Shown here: one piece after another, positions 21,584-35,991 of the stretch
Position numbering within the stretch: the first letter of the stretch is position 1
How the letters are laid out: each line of letters opens with the position of its first letter
UHGV virus genome: UHGV-0222783
DNA: 35,991 nt
DNA from: a virus
Reading direction: 5' to 3' (one strand)
Notes under the pieces: model-generated
Told to the model about the DNA's origin: nothing
Seen by the model: the letters and a program-made list of their open reading frames with translations, nothing else
The model's database searches: none
Made by a program: the position numbers and the translations under genes

Positions 21584-21772
21584 ATGGCACGAACAATGCT
21601 CTATAAGCCAGGCAACATGATCACCTGCGGTCAGTTTGCTGTCGATTACATCATTGTTGATGACGAAGAAGTTAAATCTCACCTGAAAAAAGGTTGGGTA
21701 AAAACTCCTGAAGAAACCGCAACGAAGCAAAAAGTGGCTAAGGCGGAAGAAGATGGCGAAAACGAAGGGTGA
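21584..21772 (+). CDS. hypothetical small protein (62 aa) between coat and gp4-like
   Basis: ATG 21584 after GGGAGAAG SD (MARTMLYKPGNMITCGQFAVDYIIVDDEEVK...). The track start at 21545 is a TTG. Confidence 0.4.
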   Translation: MARTMLYKPGNMITCGQFAVDYIIVDDEEVKSHLKKGWVKTPEETATKQKVAKAEEDGENEG

Positions 21773-22214
21773 TCTCGTTCTAAAGGCTTTACGAAAAGCT
21801 GGGCTGTATTCCAATGCCACGTTGACAGATGCTGACCCTCAGGCAATTGAAGATGCCATTAATGACCTCGAAGACATGATGGCAGCATGGCAGGCGAAAG
21901 GTATCGAGCTTGGGTATCAGTTTGCTGATACAGAAAACGGCATCATGCCGTTACCTGACGATGATTCAGGCATCCCTGCATGGGCAAATGATGGCGTCGC
22001 TTTGAAACTCGCTGTGCAAGTGTGCATGGATAACGTCATTCAGCCGTCAGACGCTCTCCTTACCGCTGCTGACAGTGCATATCAAACAATCTGTATCGCT
22101 TTAACCAAAATACCACCACTTGAGCGGCGAAATGACATGCCTCGCGGTAATGGTAACAAAAGCGCGTTTACGTGGAATCGGTTTTACATCGAGAAAGATG
22201 ATCCGAGTACGTGA
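21753..22214 (+). CDS. head-to-tail adaptor / head completion protein (P22 gp4-like)
   Basis: 153 aa; gene order TerS-TerL-portal-scaffold-coat-gp4-gp10-gp26 as in P22-like podoviruses. Confidence 0.65.
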   Translation: MAKTKGDLVLKALRKAGLYSNATLTDADPQAIEDAINDLEDMMAAWQAKGIELGYQFADTENGIMPLPDDDSGIPAWANDGVALKLAVQVCMDNVIQPSDALLTAADSAYQTICIALTKIPPLERRNDMPRGNGNKSAFTWNRFYIEKDDPST

Positions 22215-22223
22215 GGTGAATAA

Positions 22224-23642
22224 ATGCCGATTCAGCAACTTCCGCTTATGAAAGGTGTCGGCAAAGACTTTAGAAACGCCGACTATATCGACTATCTGCC
22301 AGTGAATATGTTGGCTACACCCAAAGAAATCCTTAACAGCAGCGGATATCTTCGCTCATTCCCGGGCATTGCCAAACGCTCTGATGTAAACGGTGTATCG
22401 CGCGGAGTTGAGTACAACATGGCGCAGAATGCTGTTTATCGCGTGTGTGGCGGCAAGCTGTACAAAGGAGAAAGTGAAGTCGGTGATGTTGCCGGAAGTG
22501 GTCGTGTATCAATGGCGCATGGTCGAACATCTCAGGCTGTAGGCGTTAATGGTCAACTGGTTGAGTATCGCTATGATGGCACGGTTAAAACCGTCTCAAA
22601 CTGGCCTGCAGACAGCGGATTTACGCAGTATGAGTTAGGTTCAGTCCGCGACATTACACGCTTACGTGGGCGTTATGCGTGGTCAAAAGACGGCACGGAT
22701 TCATGGTTTATTACTGACCTTGAAGACGAATCGCACCCTGACCGATACAGCGCACAATATCGCGCAGAATCGCAGCCTGACGGCATTATCGGCATCGGAA
22801 CATGGCGAGACTTCATTGTCTGCTTTGGTTCATCAACGATTGAATATTTCTCCATGACTGGTGCAACCACTGTTGGTGCCGCTTTGTATGTCGCACAGCC
22901 ATCGCTGATGGTGCAGAAAGGTATTGCCGGGACTTACTGCAAAACGCCGTTTGCTGATTCGTATGCGTTCATCAGCAATCCGGCAACAGGCGCGCCTTCT
23001 GTATACATCATCGGCTCCGGTCAGGTATCACCAATAGCCAGCGCGAGCATTGAGAAAATCCTCCGCTCCTACACTGCTGATGAACTGGCTGATGGCGTGA
23101 TGGAATCGTTGCGGTTTGATGCTCATGAGTTGCTGATTATTCACCTGCCGCGCCACGTCCTCGTGTACGACGCATCTTCAAGCGCCAATGGTCCGCAATG
23201 GTGTGTACTGAAAACAGGCCTGTATGACGATGTGTACCGCGCTATCGACTTCATTTACGAAGGCAACCAAATTACGTGCGGCGATAAGCTTGAATCGATG
23301 ACAGGGAAATTGCAGTTCGATATCAGCAGCCAGTACGACAGGCAACAGGAACACCTGCTGTTTACTCCGTTGTTCAAAGCGGATAACGCCAGAGTTTTCG
23401 ACCTTGAGGTTGAGTCGTCAACTGGCGTTGCGCAGTATGCTGACCGCCTTTTTCTCTCTGCAACCACTGACGGCATCAATTACGGGCGTGAGCAGATGAT
23501 TGAGCAGAATGAACCGTTCGTTTACGACAAACGTGTTTTGTGGAAGCGAGTAGGGCGCATCAGGAAAAATGTCGGCTTCAAATTGCGCGTTATCACGAAG
23601 TCACCTGTCACTCTGTCTGGTTGCCAGATAAGGATTGAGTAA
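22224..23642 (+). CDS. tail hub protein (P22 gp10-like)
   Basis: 472 aa (same length as P22 gp10), gene order. Confidence 0.65.
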
Positions 23643-25500: not shown

Positions 25501-26952
25501 ATGGCTACGTGGCAACAGGGTATTAATTCTGGTGGGTTTCTGGCTGGCATCGGTACGCAAAATGAGAATGCGCCAAAGGCAAGCGACATTAACGCAACGC
25601 TTGGTCTGATCCGCGAAAACAATGAACTGGCTCGATCAGGTGCAAATAACGTTGCTCTGACAGGTCTTCGTGGTCTGGCTGGAGTTGCTGATATTTATAA
25701 GCAGCAGCAAAAGCAGGAGCGTAAAGCGGCATTCCAGAAAGGTTATGCGGATGCTTATGCGTCCGGCGACAGGGAGCAGATGCGTAATCTTATTACAGCA
25801 TTCCCCGAAGAGTTTGAGGAAGTCCGTAAAGGCATGGGGTATGTCGATGACGCCCAGCGGGATGATTTTGGCAATCTGGCGCTTAAGGCTCAGGTCGCTT
25901 CGTCGCTTGGTCCGGGTGCATTTGGCAGGTTCATGATGGATAACGAAAAGGAGATGCGTCGTTTAGGTATCCCTCCAGAAACTATTGCGGAAATGCAGGT
26001 TAATGACCCGCAGGGCTTCCAGCACTTCGCAGGTAATCTGGCACTATTTTCTCTCGGTCATGAGAAGTATTTCGATATCAAAGATCAAATGGAAGGTCGG
26101 GATATTGAGCGTGGCAAGTTGGCAGAGACGATTCGCAGCAATAAAGCTGGGGAAGGTTTAAAGGCGCAAAGCATTGCTGTTAGCCGTGAAAACTCCCTGC
26201 GCACTGCTGGAGGTGCTGTTCCTGCATCTGTTAAAGAATATCAATATTTCAACAGCCTGTCTCCAGAGCAACAAAAGACATATCTTCGTGTTCGAGGTCG
26301 TCCTGATGCTGGCGGGGAGAATGTTGTGCAACTGGCAGATGGCAGAACGGTAACGGTTGGTAGGAAGCTTCACGGCGCTGGTGCTAATGCGTTCTACGAA
26401 GGAATAGACAACGAGGGCAATATGATTCGCGTCCCCGCCAGTTCTATTGCTGCTCCGGCTACATCGGCAGCTAATGCACAGAATTACGAAATGAAGAAAG
26501 ATCTTGATGCAATTTCTGGCGCATCAATTGACGATCTTGGCTTCATGACAGGTATTACAGGTTCTTCAGGTTCTTTTGCTCTTGGTGCAGATATTCGTAG
26601 CAGGGCATCTGGTGTTGAGGAGAGGAGGCTATACAACGCTGCACAGCGAATCATGGGCAAAATGCAAAATCAGGGGATTGCAGCAGCCCGAGATATGGGG
26701 GCATCTGGCATCAACACCGAAGCAGAGGCCAATAGGTATTTTCAGGGTATGCCAAAGCCTGATTTCTCAAGTCCTGAAGCGCTGCAACAATCAATGCGCG
26801 ACATTCAGCAATATACCGACAATTACAACCAGCAATATAACGTTAATGTTGGTAATGGCGGGAAGAAATCATCAAGGCAACAGCCAGCTACTCAGCAATC
26901 AGCAGGAGGTAGCTACACGTCAAAATCAGGCATTCAATTTACGGTGGAATGA
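25501..26952 (+). CDS. ejection protein (P22 gp20-like)
   Basis: 483 aa, gene order. Confidence 0.6.
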
Positions 26953-28964
26953 TGAAAGTAACTGCAAATGGTAAGACATTTACCTTTCCTGATGGTACGA
27001 GCACGGAAGATATTGGGTCCGCCATTGATGAGTATTTTGCTGGTCAGTCAGCGCCAACACAACAAGGTGTTCAGCAATCGCCAGCAGACAACTCACTTGC
27101 ATCAGGATATGCACAGCTTGCCACTCAGCAGAAGGAAGGACTAGATCGCTCTGCTGAGCAAGGGGCTGTTTTAGGTGCTGCAATGCGCGATGCCGTTACC
27201 GGTGAAAGCCGAATGACACCAGAAATGGAGAGACTGCAAAATGTTGGGGCTGCCCCTGAGTTGAACTCACTAAGCATGGATGCCCTGAAGGCTGGATGGT
27301 CTCAACTTTTCGGCTCCGACGCGTCTCAGGAAAAGATTCTTCAGAGTATGGGGGCGAAATTAAGGCAGGATGAGAAGGGTAACACTATCGTTTCCCTGCC
27401 ATCCGGTGATTATGCCCTGAACAAGCCAGGTTTATCACCGCAAGACCTGACTTCGTTTCTTGCTAATGCGTTAGCGTTCACACCAGCGGGCAGGGCTGGA
27501 ACGGTGCTTGGTGCCATAGGGAAATCAGCTGCTACAGATTTAGCACTACAGGGTGGCACCAGCCTTGCTGGCGGAGAAGATATTGATCCTGCACAAACGG
27601 TAATTTCTGCTGGCATTGGTGGTGTTGGCAAGGGGCTGGAAAATACAGTTAGTGCGGTTTCCAGGGCTGTTCGCGGTGAGATGTCACCGGAAGCAAAGGC
27701 TGCTGTCGATTTTGCGTCGGAAAGAAACCTGCCGTTAATGACCAGTGACACGCTGAAAGATAAAACCTTTATGCAGAGTCAGGCTCAGACATTAGGCGAA
27801 AGAGTTCCTTTTTTTGGAACCGGTAAGAATCGGCTGAATCAACAACAAGCACGAGAAAATTTAGTCAGAACATTTAGCGATGGTCTGGGTGGCATTTCTG
27901 ATAAACAGCTTTATGAATCTGCGACTAAAGGGCAACAAAAATTCATTGAGGCAGCAGGAAAGCGATATAACCGCATAATTGACGCTATGGGGGATACCCC
28001 TGTCGATCTCTCAAACACGGTAAAAGCTATCGACAATCAGATTGCCGTGTTAAGCCGCCCGGGCAAATCTCAGGATAGAGCCGCGGTAAAAGTCTTGCAG
28101 CAATTTAAAGACGATATCACCAGCGGACCCAATGACCTGCGTCTGGCGAGAGAAAACAGAACTGACCTTCGAAAGCGGTTCATGAATTCAAACGAGACTG
28201 TTGATAAAGACACGCTCCAGAAAGCCAGCGATATTGTCTACAAGGCATATACAGCGGATATGAAAAAAGCAGTATCCCAAAAACTAGGCTCAGAAGAAGC
28301 TGCCAATATGTCTAGGGTTGATCGCTCATGGGCTAGATTCAATGACATGATGGGAAGAACGCGCGTTCAAAAGGCAATAGCCAGCGGCAAGGCTACACCT
28401 GAGGATGTAACAAAACTCGTTTTTAGCCAAAACCCATCAGAACGTTCTCAGCTTTACAGGCTTCTGGATGACAATGGTAGGCAAAACGCACGAGCAGCCA
28501 TAGTTCAGAATGCTGTAGATAAGGCGACTGATCCGTCTGGAAATATTAGTGTTGAAAAGTTTATTAATGCGTTACACCGGAACAGGAAGCAATCAGCAAC
28601 TTTCTTTAAAGGCGTACATGGAAAGGAACTGGACGGCGTTATTAAATACCTCAACGATACAAGACACGCGGCAAAAGCGAACGTTCAAAACTTAAATGGT
28701 CAGCAGCTTTATGGATTGTTAGTTGGTGGTGGCATCATAAACGCAGCAGTATTAGCGGGGATGCTAAAAACGGCTGCGTTTGTTGTTCCTGCTGCTGGTG
28801 TCGTAGGAGGAGCTGCGAAGGCATACGAAAGCCCTGTTATACGAAATGCCTTGTTACGTCTGGCAAATACGCCAAAAGGTAGCACAGCATATGACAGAGC
28901 GATCAGTACGGTCACACAATCGCTCACCAGAGTCGCACAGGCATCACAAAAAGAAGCTCAATAA
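26949..28964 (+). CDS. ejection protein (P22 gp16-like)
   Basis: 671 aa, gene order; C-terminal hydrophobic Gly-rich segment ([34 protein letters not shown]). Confidence 0.6.
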
Positions 28965-29332: not shown

Positions 29333-29507
29333 ACCAACCTCCTTAGTTTTGCGCAGGATACCAGATGATGTATAGGAGTGGGAGTAAAGTTAGTCGGTGA
29401 TAGAACGGTGGTTGCATAATGATATCACGTGACGTAAACTTATTGCGCATAGCGTGTATTCAATGGATGCATAGCTATTGATAATCTCCGATAAGAAGGA
29501 GGTTTGT

Positions 29508-30074
29508 ATGAGCAATGAGACTAATGGGATTGATGAAATGTTTAGCTTGAACGCTGCCAAAGCTGGAGTCGCAATAGGTTTGCTATTACAGCAAGCTTCT
29601 GCGTTCAGTTGTGAGGTGGTTGTTACTGATAACGTTCAGCACGCTTACCATCAATCCTCATTCAGCAGTGAACGGGCTAATGATGAGCTTCATGAGGCGG
29701 TGTCTTCGATTAAAGAATTGTCTCGAATGCTGAAATACGCTTATCGTGTTCTTGCAAACGCTACCGATGAGAATGTAGACAATGTGTTGTCTATCATTGA
29801 ACCAGAAAAGTCTCGATTGATAGAGCATCAATTGAGAGGACTTGAAGGGGCAATGAAATCGGTATTCAAAGAAGCTTCTGCTGATTTTAAAGAGATCGCA
29901 AGAGATATCTATATCGTTGTTGCTGATGCCAGATCTGCCGTAACCAACCTGAATAGTCTTATTAAACAACGCTCATGTGTTCCGGTTGTTTTTGATAGTT
30001 CCGTAGATATGGCTGGTTTGCGTGCGCTTGCTGAGCACGGGACTCGTGTGTTTCACTCTGGTAACTTCCACTGA
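29508..30074 (+). CDS. hypothetical protein (188 aa), first gene of an accessory two-gene operon
   Basis: ATG 29508 after strong SD AAGGAGG. Predicted helical; no family recognised by eye. Confidence 0.5.
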   Translation: MSNETNGIDEMFSLNAAKAGVAIGLLLQQASAFSCEVVVTDNVQHAYHQSSFSSERANDELHEAVSSIKELSRMLKYAYRVLANATDENVDNVLSIIEPEKSRLIEHQLRGLEGAMKSVFKEASADFKEIARDIYIVVADARSAVTNLNSLIKQRSCVPVVFDSSVDMAGLRALAEHGTRVFHSGNFH

Positions 30075-30082
30075 GGTAAAAC

Positions 30083-30532
30083 ATGCAAGTAACCGTGGAA
30101 TATAATCAGGATAGTTTTGACTATTTTTTCTCCCCGGTTTTTGTTGAGTTTCCTGATTTAAAACAAACACTTGTAGATGATTTTATCATCTACAAGTCTA
30201 CGGGAACGTTGCCCAGCTATTTTGGCAGAGACACCTCTTATCATCGACCTCCTGATATTGAAGATGCAGGCCTTATGCACCTTCATTTAGCAATTGGTGA
30301 AAATAAATTTGAGCCAATAAAAAATGGCACAGATATCAGCACACCGCAAAAGTTGCAGTGGCATAAAACATCCAATACCGCTCTCGTTTATGCACAAAAT
30401 CTTTTTGATGAGAACAGGTATTCATTGATTGCTCTTTTTCATCCTGTAGCTCACATGTCTGCTAACAATCATAATAGAATGAGAGTGTTAGCAGGGTATG
30501 CGAGAGACTTTAGAAACACTATGTTTGACTAA
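30083..30532 (+). CDS. hypothetical protein (149 aa), second gene of the accessory operon
   Basis: ATG 30083, 8 nt after the upstream stop. His-rich motifs (HLHLA, FHPVAH). Followed by an intrinsic terminator. Confidence 0.5.
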   Translation: MQVTVEYNQDSFDYFFSPVFVEFPDLKQTLVDDFIIYKSTGTLPSYFGRDTSYHRPPDIEDAGLMHLHLAIGENKFEPIKNGTDISTPQKLQWHKTSNTALVYAQNLFDENRYSLIALFHPVAHMSANNHNRMRVLAGYARDFRNTMFD

Positions 30533-30533
30533 A

Positions 30534-30556
30534 CCCACCGTCAGGTGGGTTTTTTA
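30534..30556 (+). terminator. intrinsic terminator between convergent operons
   Basis: cccacc-gtca-ggtggg hairpin then tttttt, placed between the plus operon end (30532) and the minus ClpP-like gene end (30581). Confidence 0.6.
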
Positions 30557-30580
30557 TAAGGAGTAATCATGATTTACCCA

Positions 30581-31117
30581 TCAAACAACCCACCAGTTTG
30601 CCTGATTGGATGCCAGCCTTGCAGTTTTTATGGAATTAATTATGCCATGCTCAAGAGCCTTGTTAGCATCCAAAATGGTCGAGTCTGCTATCAGGGATGC
30701 CCACCTAATATGGGTTCCGATGTCGATATTGAACGTCTCAACGAAGCGATCAAGATCGTTATCGAGGCATTTCCCGTACTCTCTCAATCTGGCATGGTCG
30801 GCGGCTGGGGAGGCAAAGCACCATAATAGAGGATGTAACAGGAATCTTGATAATGGGTTTGCGAAACGTTCTGAGCCAGCCAGGAAAACGATATTAGCTA
30901 TGGATTCAACATTGCTTATGTTGTGAGTTCTAACGGTAACAGGGAGTGACTTAAGAAAGTTATACGCAGTAAAGCCAGCAGCAGTTTCCCCTCCCTGACT
31001 TGATATATGGATATTTAATTCAGTTGCGCCTTGAGATAATGCGGTGAGACAGTGGTTCTGAAGTTGCCCAACAGTGGCAGTGTTAACAGGGCATAAGAAA
31101 TGAATTGTGTGCAGCAT
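30581..31117 (-). CDS. ClpP-family serine peptidase homolog (178 aa)
   Basis: By-eye alignment to E. coli ClpP: [23 protein letters not shown] vs [51 protein letters not shown] vs [32 protein letters not shown]. The catalytic Ser and His positions appear conserved. ATG overlaps the Mnt-like stop (TAATG). Confidence 0.6.
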   Translation of the reverse strand: [178 protein letters not shown]

Positions 31118-31365
31118 TATTTTTCATCCTTAGCATACATGGTCTTTAGCGTCTCAAGTAGCGCCTCTTTGAATTTATCAGCTTCTTGCTGAGCAAATGA
31201 CTCAACTGACTTTGGCGACCTATCTTCATCAATCGCGGCTTGCAAAATCATGACGATCTCGGAGTTAACAGAGCGACCATTTTTTGATGCTCTGACAGCA
31301 AGAGCCTCGCGTAAAGATTCAGGGATTCTTACCGTAGTTGGAGAAATTGACACACCCTTTGCCAT
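31117..31365 (-). CDS. Mnt/Arc-type ribbon-helix-helix repressor
   Basis: MAKGVSISPTTVRIPESLREALAVRASKNGRSVNSEIVMIL... is an RHH motif (compare P22 Mnt ..REKLKFRAEANGRSMNSELLQIV). ATG at 31365. Confidence 0.7.
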   Translation of the reverse strand: MAKGVSISPTTVRIPESLREALAVRASKNGRSVNSEIVMILQAAIDEDRSPKSVESFAQQEADKFKEALLETLKTMYAKDEK

Positions 31366-31388
31366 ATAACACCTTTGGTATTCAATTT

Positions 31389-31441
31389 GATAGCAAAGTG
31401 TATGCAAAAAAATTTTGACTAGATATACTCACTTTGCTATC
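31389..31441. promoter_or_regulatory. divergent promoter/operator region with 12-bp perfect inverted repeat
   Basis: gatagcaaagtg (31389..31400) and its reverse complement cactttgctatc (31430..31441) bracket a TTGACT -35-like hexamer, between divergent RHH repressor genes. Confidence 0.5.
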
Positions 31442-31479
31442 TTTTGTATTCGAAAAGAGTTGTTTGCGTGGAGGGTAAC

Positions 31480-31632
31480 ATGGAGAAAGAAATAAGTAAG
31501 ATTTTGGTAAGGATGCCGCAGTCGTTAAAGGATGCTATCGGTAGCAGGGCAAAGGAAGAGTGCAGGTCGTTTAACTCAGAGGTTATCAAGCGCCTGATAG
31601 ACAGCCTGAAGAGAGAGGGGGTAACGGTGTGA
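31480..31632 (+). CDS. Arc-like ribbon-helix-helix repressor (50 aa)
   Basis: MEKEISKILVRMPQSLKDAIGSRAKEECRSFNSEVIKRLIDSLKREGVTV; RHH pattern (compare P22 Arc ..RWPREVLDLVRKVAEENGRSVNSEIYQRV). GGAGGG SD. Confidence 0.65.
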   Translation: MEKEISKILVRMPQSLKDAIGSRAKEECRSFNSEVIKRLIDSLKREGVTV

Positions 31633-32784: not shown

Positions 32785-32810
32785 GACCCAGCTTCGGCTG
32801 GGTTTTTTTA
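32785..32810 (+). terminator. intrinsic terminator after ant
   Basis: cccagc-ttcg-gctggg hairpin followed by ttttttt. Confidence 0.6.
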
Positions 32811-32867
32811 TGCCCAAAATTCACCGTGGCCATGCTGCGGCGATTCTTTGCATCTGGAGCAAATTAA

Positions 32868-35813
32868 ATGACAGACATTACAGCCAATGTGATTGTATCG
32901 ATGCCTTCGCAACTCTTCACTATGGCGCGTTCTTTTAAAGCCGTAGCCAATGGCAAAATTTATATCGGTAAAATTGACACTGATCCTGTAAATACAGAAA
33001 ACCAGATTCAGGTCTATGTGGAGAATGAAGACGGTTCTCACGTTCCTGTTTCGCAACCAATAATCATTAACGCTGCTGGATATCCGGTATATAACGGACA
33101 GATTGCCAAATTCGTTACCGTGCAAGGCCATTCTATGGCTGTTTATGATGCGTATGGTGCGCAGCAGTTCTATTTTCCTAATGTGCTGAAGTATGATCCT
33201 GATCAGTTACGGCAGCAATTAGAAGACACAGATGGAGCGAATAAATACCCAAAACTTCAGATAGCAAGATGGAGAGACAGTTATGATGTAAGAGGTTGGG
33301 GGGCTATTGGTGATGGTGTTCATGATGATACATCAGCTCTATCAGAATTACTTTCTGTTGCAACAGGTGGTGAAAAGATAGATGGGCGAGGGCTTACTTT
33401 TAAAGTATCAACTCTTCCAGATGTCAGTCGATTTAAAAATGCTCGTTTTTTATTTGAGAGAATACCGGGTCAGCCTCTTTTTTATGCTTCTGAAGATTTT
33501 ATCCAGGGAGAGTTATTTAAAATTACAGATACACCGTGGTACAACGCCTGGACGCAGGATAAAACGTTTGTATATGACAATGTCATCTATGCGCCTTTTA
33601 TGGCTGGAGACCGCCATGGTGTAAATAACCTCCATGTTGCATGGGTTCGCTCAGGAGATGACGGGAAGACCTGGACAACGCCGGAATGGCTTACAGATTT
33701 ACATGAAAACTATCCCACAGTTAACTATCACTGCATGAGTATGGGGGTTGTCAGAAATCGCCTTTTTGCTGTAATTGAGACGCGGACCGTGAGCGGAAAT
33801 AAACTGCAGGTTGCAGAGTTGTGGGATCGCCCAATGAGTCGCAGCCTTCGCGTTTATGGTGGTATAACGAAAGCAGCAAATCAGCAAGTCGCTTATATTC
33901 GCATTACTGATCACGGATTATTTGCTGGTGATTTTGTCAACTTCTCAAACTCTGGTGTTACAGGTGTTACCGGGAATATGACGGTGACTACTGTTATTGA
34001 TAAAAATACTTTTACAGTTACGACGCAAAATACCCAGGATGTGGATCAGAATAACGAGGGTAGATACTGGAGTTTTGGTACATCATTTCACTCGTCACCA
34101 TGGAGAAAAACCAGTCTTGGAACTATTCCTTCTTTTGTTGACGGAAGCACTCCTGTTACTGAGATTCACAGTTTTGCGACGATTAGCGATAACAGTTTTG
34201 CTGTTGGCTACCATAATGGTGATATTGGTCCACGCGAGCTTGGGATACTCTATTTCTCTGATGCTTTCGGTTCTCCTGGTAGCTTTGTTCGCAGACGCAT
34301 ACCTGCAGAATATGAGGCGAATGCATCTGAGCCATGTGTAAAATATTATGATGGCATTCTGTATCTGACGACCAGGGGGACATTAAGTACTCAACCCGGT
34401 AGTTCATTGCACAGAAGCTCTGATTTAGGTACATCATGGAATTCTCTTCGCTTCCCAAATAATGTTCATCACTCAAACCTTCCTTTTGCCAAAGTTGGCG
34501 ATGAGCTGATTATTTTTGGCAGTGAGCGCGCATTTGGTGAGTGGGAAGGAGGAGAACCTGATAACCGTTATGCAGGAAATTATCCAAGAACATTTATGAC
34601 CAGAGTTAACGTCAATGAGTGGAGTCTGGATAATGTAGAGTGGGTTAATGTTACTGATCAGATTTATCAGGGCGGAATAGTTAACTCTGCGGTTGGTGTT
34701 GGTTCAGTTTGTATCAAAGACAACTGGCTGTACTACATTTTCGGTGGGGAAGACTTTCTAAACCCATGGAGCATAGGGGATAACAACAGAAAATATCCTT
34801 ATGTTCACGATGGTCACCCGGCTGATTTGTATTGTTTCAGGGTGAAAATTAAACAGGAAGAATTTGTTTCAAGGGATTTTGTCTACGGAGCCACTCCTAA
34901 CAGAACGCTTCCTACTTTTATGTCGACGTCAGGCGTGAGGACGGTTCCTGTACCCGTTGATTTCACAGATGATGTTGCCGTCCAGTCACTGACTGTCCAT
35001 GCAGGTACATCAGGACAAGTTCGCGCGGAAGTCAAACTTGAGGGTAATTACGCCATTATTGCGAAGAAAGTACCGTCTGATGATGTTACCGCTCAGAGAT
35101 TAATCGTTAGCGGAGGTGAAACAACGTCTTCAGCAGATGGTGCAATGATAACGTTGCATGGTTCCGGAAGCAGTACTCCACGTCGCGCGGTATATAACGC
35201 ACTCGAACATCTTTTTGAGAACGGAGATGTTAAACCTTATCTTGATAATGTAAATGCTCTTGGTGGTCCGGGAAACAGGTTCTCGACAGTTTATCTTGGC
35301 TCCAATCCTGTGGTTACCAGTGACGGAACATTAAAGACAGAGCCGGTCTCTCCTGACGAAGCATTGCTGGATGCCTGGGGTGACGTCAGGTATATCGCTT
35401 ATAAATGGCTGAACGCTGTCGCTATAAAGGGGGAAGAAGGGGCGAGGATACATCATGGTGTAATCGCGCAGCAACTTCGTGATGTTCTTATTTCTCACGG
35501 ACTCATGGAAGAAGAAAGCACAACATGCCGCTATGCCTTTCTTTGCTATGACGATTATCCCGCAGTATATGATGACGTCATTACTGGCCAAAGGGAAATG
35601 CCGCTGACTGATAATGACGGGAGCATCATTGTTGATGAGGATGATAATCCAGTGATGGTAATGGAAGACATCATTGAGCGCGTTGAAATAACGCCAGCAG
35701 GATCTAGATGGGGGGTCAGACCTGATCTCTTATTCTATATCGAGGCAGCATGGCAGCGCAGAGAAATAGAAAGAATAAAAGCTAGGTTAGACTTAATAGA
35801 AGGGAAGCACTAA
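32868..35813 (+). CDS. tailspike: P22-type N-terminal head-binding domain fused to an endosialidase with C-terminal intramolecular chaperone domain
   Basis: 981 aa. N-terminus [42 protein letters not shown] is the P22-like particle-binding domain. Sialidase Asp-box motifs SGDDGKTW and SSDLGTSW. C-terminal region resembles the self-cleaving chaperone domain of K1-phage endosialidases. Confidence 0.8.
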
Positions 35814-35972
35814 ATGTTTCGTTGGCGTCAAAAATATGAACTGATCACATAAAGAAGTAAGTACATTGGCAAAAAACATTGACGTCAACGAAATTAAATA
35901 TAAAAATTTAAATGCTTTTTAATGACAAGAAAAGTAACTAGTGGTAAAATAACGTAGGATACTAATATGTTA

Positions 35973-35991
35973 AGACTCAAGACTCAAGACT
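35973..35991. repeat. short tandem repeat (agactca unit) at window end
   Basis: gactcaagactcaagact; truncated by the window edge, in an A/T-rich intergenic tail after the tailspike. Confidence 0.3.

Follow-up and report, generated by a model that had tools for sequence, protein, structure and literature searches.

What kind of receptor-binding protein is encoded near the 3' end of UHGV virus genome UHGV-0222783, and which host would it serve to attack? The window, meaning the whole stretch of 35,991 nucleotides that was analyzed, contains in this region an intact open reading frame in one piece (Table 1), which starts with ATG, encodes 981 amino acids and includes its stop codon. A Shine-Dalgarno-like TGGAG motif was found about 8 nt 5' of the ATG, and the N-terminus of the encoded protein, MTDITANV, is identical to the start of P22 gp9. 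The precursor has a computed mass of 109.2 kDa, of which residues 1–817 account for 90.5 kDa and residues 818–981 for 18.7 kDa; the CUS-3 enzyme is listed at 109 kDa in a review (PMC5380687). The initial annotation, made from the DNA letters, had described the product as a chimeric tailspike in which a P22-type head-binding domain is fused to an endosialidase. Pfam and PDB matches bore out this description, and every element of the identification is supported at the sequence level. Overall, it is almost certain that the gene belongs to a temperate phage of the P22 type that resembles CUS-3 and resides in K1-capsulated Escherichia coli, and that its product serves this phage as a receptor-destroying tailspike.

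The closest relative is well known. In a megablast search against phage records, the whole gene was found to be 99.8% identical at the nucleotide level to siaK1, annotated as "endosialidase tailspike protein", in the record of Enterobacteria phage CUS-3 (CP000711.1), which comes from E. coli RS218. The siaK1 product (ABQ88383.1; Stummeyer et al., 2006) has the same length of 981 residues and the same domain order, and is 99.6% identical at the amino acid level. Seven nucleotide differences separate the two genes, with four amino acid replacements (A207V, G767R, T807I and A832T, window to RS218). Three of the window residues concerned (207, 807 and 832) are those of K1F, position 767 lies in a variable stretch, and none of the four replacements touches a key residue. 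The tailspike is also 100% identical in amino acid sequence to WP_047340634.1 from E. coli APEC O18. Among its entries, the CUS-3 record (CP000711.1) gives an endo-alpha-sialidase activity with the evidence code IDA, citing PMID 16689790. In its treatment of tailspike module exchange, a review (PMC5380687, citing Stummeyer et al., 2006) uses the CUS-3 chimera as the standard example, with an N-terminus as in P22, Sf6 and HK620 and a catalytic part as in K1F. Thus, the swap of a receptor-binding module onto a P22-like virion, as proposed in the initial annotation, holds, but that annotation overlooked that the exact chimera is already known: it was published in 2006, its protein is in RefSeq, and it is a model case in reviews. 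Two other interpretations of the reading frame were tried and rejected. A pseudogene or a copy disrupted by an insertion sequence (IS) was ruled out for the window, the frame being uninterrupted and equal in length to CUS-3 siaK1; and a gene on the opposite strand was dismissed, the antisense frames of 50–107 amino acids all lying within the strongly supported tailspike frame.

The surroundings of the gene are those of a P22-type phage. P22_Tail-4 (gp4) and Phage_stabilise (gp10) matches were found 5' of the tailspike, together with further frames for a P22 portal, coat, gp7, a gp20-like injectosome protein (injectosome translocase), large terminase, Arc-type repressors and the antirepressor Ant. 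Because these P22-type virion genes, including gp4 and gp10, are present in the window, the chassis can be regarded as P22-like, and the proteins onto which the head-binding domain docks are encoded alongside it. The immediate neighbours are the same as those of CUS-3 siaK1, namely ant on the 5' side and the heptanucleotide repeat of neuO on the 3' side. The terminator-like hairpin after ant has the same relative position as the annotated P22 ant terminator and lies within the stretch designated the "bsq1 boundary sequence" in CUS-3. The ATG of neuO, the gene for a polysialic-acid O-acetyltransferase, is located 154 nt 3' of the tailspike stop codon, and the window ends within the first AAGACTC repeats; in CUS-3 (CP000711.1), the poly(psi) AAGACTC repeat of neuO is found at an equal distance after siaK1. 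Both neuO and its phase-variable repeat have been described (PMC3046976, PMC13001214), and this contingency gene alters capsule O-acetylation and the susceptibility to phage and to neutrophil killing (PMC13001214). CUS-3-like prophages are characterized by an integrase and an attachment site at tRNA-Arg (argW). In APEC O18, the strain with the identical tailspike protein, neuO is followed by intS and tRNA-Arg; the window ends before these features. Elsewhere, the window departs from RS218 CUS-3. Its immunity I region, with a ClpP-like frame and a YafO-like frame, is unlike that of RS218 CUS-3 and matches the prophage found in S88, in ST95-32 and in a further 34 genomes, and the ejection-protein genes likewise differ from those of RS218 CUS-3 and match the S88/ST95 prophage variant. 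Rather than RS218 CUS-3 itself (67% coverage), the window represents a mosaic variant of the CUS-3-like kind.

At least 80% of a query comprising the gene and 178 downstream bases was found in 154 of 5,426 complete E. coli genomes. The best matches include strains recorded as K1 or as coming from an invasive source: S88, CE10 (O7:K1), a cerebrospinal-fluid isolate and ST95-32. The proposal that the phage targets hosts with a polysialic-acid capsule of the E. coli K1 type fits with the 99.8% nucleotide identity to the siaK1 gene of CUS-3, a K1-specific prophage, and with neuO lying directly 3' of the tailspike gene. The tailspike marks the window as a prophage of the CUS-3 kind from extraintestinal pathogenic E. 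coli with a K1 capsule, which gives the identification its value for annotation, and it predicts a capsule-dependent host range. Is the spike still used for infection? It is rather unlikely, but conceivable, that the gene is intact within a prophage that is otherwise a decaying remnant, so that the spike no longer serves infection and persists as a passenger beside neuO as the selected cargo. CUS-3-like prophages have been reported to decay, with tail and coat genes annotated as pseudogenes in many isolates (PMC9659370), and the IS-split tailspike genes of phiv205-1, FY26, NCTC11151 and ATCC 11775 fit this report. However, the tailspike gene and all virion genes examined in the window are full-length frames with full-length family matches, and none of the seven nucleotide changes relative to RS218 CUS-3 introduces a frameshift or a stop codon. 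Moreover, decay would bear on the present-day use of the tailspike and not on its identity. Because CUS-3-like prophages are reported to be prone to decay and the gene is split in several strains, an intact tailspike gene is no proof of an infectious phage.

The tailspike contains six Pfam domains, detected by profile search in a consistent and expected order. The phage endosialidase (endo-N-acetylneuraminidase) family to which it belongs presumably corresponds to CAZy GH58. The particle-binding domain that had been assigned to the first ~110 residues was recovered over the full length of the Head_binding profile, and structures of P22 and epsilon34 tailspike N-termini (1lkt, 2vky and 7sg7) match residues 1–127 with E values of 1e-44 to 8e-64 in a PDB sequence search. 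In the same type of search, structures of the catalytic part of endoNF (1v0e, 3gvl and others) match residues 145–817 with E = 0. The endoNF crystal chains stop at the residue aligned with T817 of the window tailspike, and the structure of the C-terminal endoNF chaperone, 3gw6, matches residues 698–979 (E 8e-95). Both profiles expected by the initial annotation, endosialidase propeller and Peptidase_S74, were found, the latter at the C-terminus over residues 818–878 (PF13884, E 1.6e-10, with a score of 41.6 bits where the cutoff is 22). With this profile, the 3gw6 match and a conserved Ser/Lys dyad, the proposed self-cleaving chaperone domain is well accounted for.

Table 1. Features of the tailspike gene and its surroundings in the window, with endoNF equivalents of catalytic residues.
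Feature	Position in window	Strand	Evidence or remark
P22_Tail-4 (gp4)	21753..22214		Pfam family match
Phage_stabilise (gp10)	22224..23642		Pfam family match
YafO-like frame, immunity I region	30083..30532	+	
ClpP-like frame, immunity I region	30581..31117	-	
Terminator-like hairpin and T-run after ant	32785..32811	+	~60 nt 5' of tailspike start
Complete tailspike gene (siaK1 allele)	32868..35813	+	ORF; CUS-3 siaK1 99.8% nt; WP_047340634.1 100% aa
P22-type head-binding (virion attachment) domain, aa 1-113	32868..33206	+	PF09008 Head_binding, profile 1-113/113, E 5e-66
Linker/neck segment, aa 114-145	33207..33302	+	Aligns with endoNF aa 214-245
Endosialidase N-terminal extension, aa 146-212	33303..33503	+	PF12218 End_N_terminal, E 9e-37
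Catalytic six-bladed beta-propeller, aa 213-662	33504..34853	+	PF12217 End_beta_propel, profile 1-367/367, E 1e-233
Asp-box SGDDGKTW, aa 262-269	33651..33674	+	Aligned with K1F endoNF SGDDGQTW
Beta-barrel nested in propeller, aa 324-406	33837..34085	+	PF12195 End_beta_barrel, E 1e-46
Asp-box SSDLGTSW, aa 517-524	34416..34439	+	Aligned with K1F endoNF SRDIGQTW
Stalk (tail-spike) domain, aa 663-817	34854..35318	+	PF12219 End_tail_spike, E 7e-78
C-terminal intramolecular chaperone/self-cleavage domain, aa 818-981	35319..35810	+	PF13884 Peptidase_S74 and PDB 3gw6
neuO start (ATG 35967) and first AAGACTC heptanucleotide repeats	35967..35991	+	Ended by window end
Tailspike H250 = endoNF H350			Pairwise alignment, conserved
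Tailspike R456 = endoNF R549			Pairwise alignment, conserved
Tailspike E488 = endoNF E581			Pairwise alignment, conserved
Tailspike R503 = endoNF R596			Pairwise alignment, conserved
Tailspike R554 = endoNF R647			Pairwise alignment, conserved

Alignment with P22 gp9 and K1F endoNF, the comparison suggested in the initial annotation, located a sharp junction between the two modules. In BLASTP, similarity to gp9 is continuous through ...NVLKYDPDQ113, past which only scattered matches occur, and homology to endoNF (K1F gp17) starts at L114, equivalent to endoNF L214, and extends with 63% identity over 867 residues to the C-terminus. The fusion point was placed between Q113 and L114 because the gp9 similarity ends at the former and the endoNF homology starts at the latter. 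On the N-terminal side, the 113 residues are homologous to those of P22 gp9 (BK000583) and its relatives in epsilon34, Sf6 and HK620, the gene likewise lying after ant, and a g341c protein of the epsilon34 type is 85% identical to the tailspike over residues 1–124. Past YDPDQ113, however, P22 gp9 is a right-handed beta-helix endorhamnosidase and shows no meaningful similarity to the endosialidase body of the window tailspike. On the C-terminal side, K1F endoNF (DQ111067; PDB 1v0e, 3gvl and 3gw6) shares the propeller, barrel, stalk, chaperone, two Asp-boxes, catalytic residues and Ser/Lys dyad. Where the window tailspike has the P22 head-binding domain, endoNF has its own N-terminal part of 213 residues, without similarity to the window tailspike and described as a T7 tail-fiber N-terminal domain (PMC5380687). 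Relative to endoNF, the window tailspike has an insert in the chaperone domain that is larger than the seven-residue one in its propeller.

The tailspike of Gally, a P22-like phage, adds to the picture of this junction. It shares nucleotides 1–449 of the gene at 88% identity, linker residues 114–145 included, but it is a non-endosialidase with an unrelated receptor-binding part, and Pfam detects only Head_binding in it. Since the linker is common to the endoNF and Gally tailspikes, it adjoins different catalytic bodies, and it could provide a source of homology for exchange on either side.

How would such a spike work? Judging from homology to endoNF and P22 gp9, three tailspike chains would assemble into a homotrimer, with the chaperone domain (residues 818–981) expected to nucleate folding of the stalk and to drive trimerization. 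The chaperone domain would then remove itself. The cleavage motif VVT817/S818DGTLK823 is kept, S818 and K823 being aligned with endoNF S911 and K916, and a Ser...Lys dyad with i/i+5 spacing has been described for endosialidase chaperone domains (PMC3742443). The cleavage site is accordingly placed, as a prediction, between T817 and S818, with S818/K823 as the dyad, and release of the chaperone domain would leave a mature spike of ~90.5 kDa per chain. Residues 1–113 are expected to dock the trimer onto a P22-like tail hub, of which the window encodes the gp4 and gp10 homologues. The beta-propeller (residues 213–662) would cut alpha-2,8-polysialic acid internally, with the nested beta-barrel and the stalk probably adding further contacts to the polymer, and in this way the virion would bore across the K1 capsule as far as the bacterial surface. 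Homology is the ground on which trimer formation, self-cleavage, enzyme activity and host range are inferred here. In the propeller, the tailspike residues equivalent to endoNF H350, R549, E581, R596 and R647 are conserved (Table 1); these endoNF residues are described as key for catalysis and highly intolerant of substitution in a study that subjected the K1F spike to deep mutational scanning (PMC12632334).

The tailspike also differs from endoNF at places that may contact the substrate polymer. Three endoNF residues, R837, S848 and Q853, which we take to be residues of the sialic-acid site in the stalk, correspond by computed mapping to tailspike R744, S755 and M760, and the replacement of Q853 by M760 could change polymer binding. 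The propeller also carries a seven-residue insertion at residues 423–429 relative to endoNF. Could the enzyme be directed at something beyond plain K1 polysialic acid, such as O-acetylated polysialic acid or the mixed alpha-2,8/2,9 polymer of K92, possibly reflecting co-evolution with neuO? Apart from M760 and the insertion, such a shift would be in line with the identity of only 63% to endoNF and with the presence on the phage of neuO, a receptor modifier that reduces killing by a lytic K1 phage (PMC13001214). A shifted specificity is nevertheless very improbable: all of the listed endoNF active-site residues are conserved, a direct assay underlies the endo-alpha-sialidase annotation of the CUS-3 protein, which is 99.6% identical, and no feature of the sequence points to another substrate.

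The two Asp-box strings that had been quoted as the mark of a sialidase were found exactly as given. Both fit the pattern S-x-D-x-G-x-[TS]-W and occupy the same positions as in K1F endoNF. That they are chance matches in a different beta-helix depolymerase is excluded by the full set of endosialidase propeller, barrel, stalk and N-terminal profiles, which score from E 1e-233 to 9e-37, and by the solved endoNF structures matching the tailspike body at E = 0.

The same endosialidase cassette was also found on an unrelated chassis. ORF7, a tail protein of the temperate epsilon15-like Uetakevirus vB_EcoP_ZX5 (MW722083; PMC9782041), matches nucleotides 522–2914 of the window gene over part of its length with 99.7% identity and 5 differences in 2371 nt. 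Its N-terminal part of ~200 residues is its own and unrelated, called a T7-like tail fiber by its authors (PMC9782041), and its last ~10 residues are also unlike those of the window tailspike. The ZX5-type junction lies near residue 174, inside the endosialidase N-terminal extension. The authors of the ZX5 study noted the endosialidase domains and made no mention of CUS-3 (PMC9782041), and a discussion of cassette exchange between CUS-3-type and vB_EcoP_ZX5-type chassis was not found in the literature checked. In APEC O18, 3 nt of 2371 distinguish the two cassette copies, compared with 6 between the window and RS218 CUS-3. That the two copies within one strain are closer to each other than the window is to RS218 CUS-3 suggests very recent exchange or gene conversion between co-resident prophages. 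Tentatively, and with a chance that we put at somewhat below even, the cassette (gene nucleotides ~522–2914) may be undergoing ongoing exchange or gene conversion between two unrelated, co-resident temperate podovirus chassis. If so, co-infection would not be the only occasion for homogenizing receptor-binding modules, which would also happen within the lysogen. The mapped junctions, between Q113 and L114 on the P22 chassis and at about residue 174 on the epsilon15-like chassis, could guide the engineering of capsule-targeting spikes.

As for the distribution of the second gene type, at least 80% of the ZX5-type gene was found in 72 complete E. coli genomes, and most of the best 25 of these 72 have two matching places. 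Many E. coli genomes, including several recorded as K1, were observed to carry an epsilon15-like prophage alongside a CUS-3-like one, and both the CUS-3-type and the ZX5-type gene were located directly in APEC O18 and EC69.

In the genome of vB_EcoP_ZX5, an epsilon15-like temperate phage, the endosialidase cassette of the CUS-3-like tailspike was found on a second chassis, at 99.7% nucleotide identity. The ZX5-type gene is present in 72 complete E. coli genomes, and in the search of these genomes with that gene, most of 25 genomes among the matches listed contain two matching places. Both gene types, CUS-3-like and ZX5-type, were directly located in E. coli strains APEC O18 and EC69. In APEC O18 a mere 3 differences in 2371 nt separate the two cassette copies, suggesting recent exchange or gene conversion of the cassette between co-resident prophages.

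The linker preceding the endosialidase body is common to endosialidases on different chassis, including that of coliphage K1F, with other coliphage tail proteins matching more weakly, and is also found in the non-endosialidase tailspike of the P22-like phage Gally. It looks like a portable neck, and modules on both of its sides could be exchanged by way of the homology that it offers.

Features of the window and corresponding comparison loci (L002, L008)
Feature	Window position	Strand	Remarks
Ejection-protein genes	25501-28964		483 aa and 671 aa
Unannotated ORF	29478-30074	+	198 aa; precedes YafO-toxin-like ORF
YafO-toxin-like ORF	30083-30532	+	Immunity I region
ClpP-like ORF	30581-31117	-	Same orientation as Arc/Mnt-like repressor
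Arc/Mnt-like repressor	31117-31407	-	Immunity I region
Linker [33 protein letters not shown]	33207-33317	+	aa 114-150; common to endosialidases on different chassis and the Gally tailspike
Endosialidase cassette	33389-35781		Gene nt ~522-2914; L002 3240-5632; L008 6001-9120
neuO start	35967-35991		ATG, then AAGACTC heptanucleotide repeats; ends at window edge

Sequence comparison shows a prophage of mosaic make-up, related to CUS-3 and distinct from it. Only 67% of window 11000-35991 is alignable to CUS-3, and the ejection-protein genes differ in length from those of RS218 CUS-3, annotated as 1350 nt and 2160 nt. The immunity I region (29478-31632) is also unlike that of RS218 CUS-3; its arrangement occurs in 36 complete genomes, S88 among them. 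A ClpP-like protein ORF adjoins the immI repressors in the window.

Disruption of the tailspike gene was assessed by comparing window 32868-35813 with MN340231.1 (L007 3572-8967) and four further matches (H115-H118). The window copy is intact. Orthologues are split by IS3 family elements in phiv205-1, FY26 and NCTC11151, and by ISEc12 in ATCC 11775. Such recurrent inactivation across strains and phage records is in keeping with prophage decay.

Only the 5' start of neuO, the phase-variable polysialic-acid O-acetyltransferase gene, lies inside the window. The stretch that separates it from the tailspike stop codon contains a promoter-like site (10/12 matches, extended TG) at 35922-35950, upstream of the neuO ATG, and yielded no terminator-like site.
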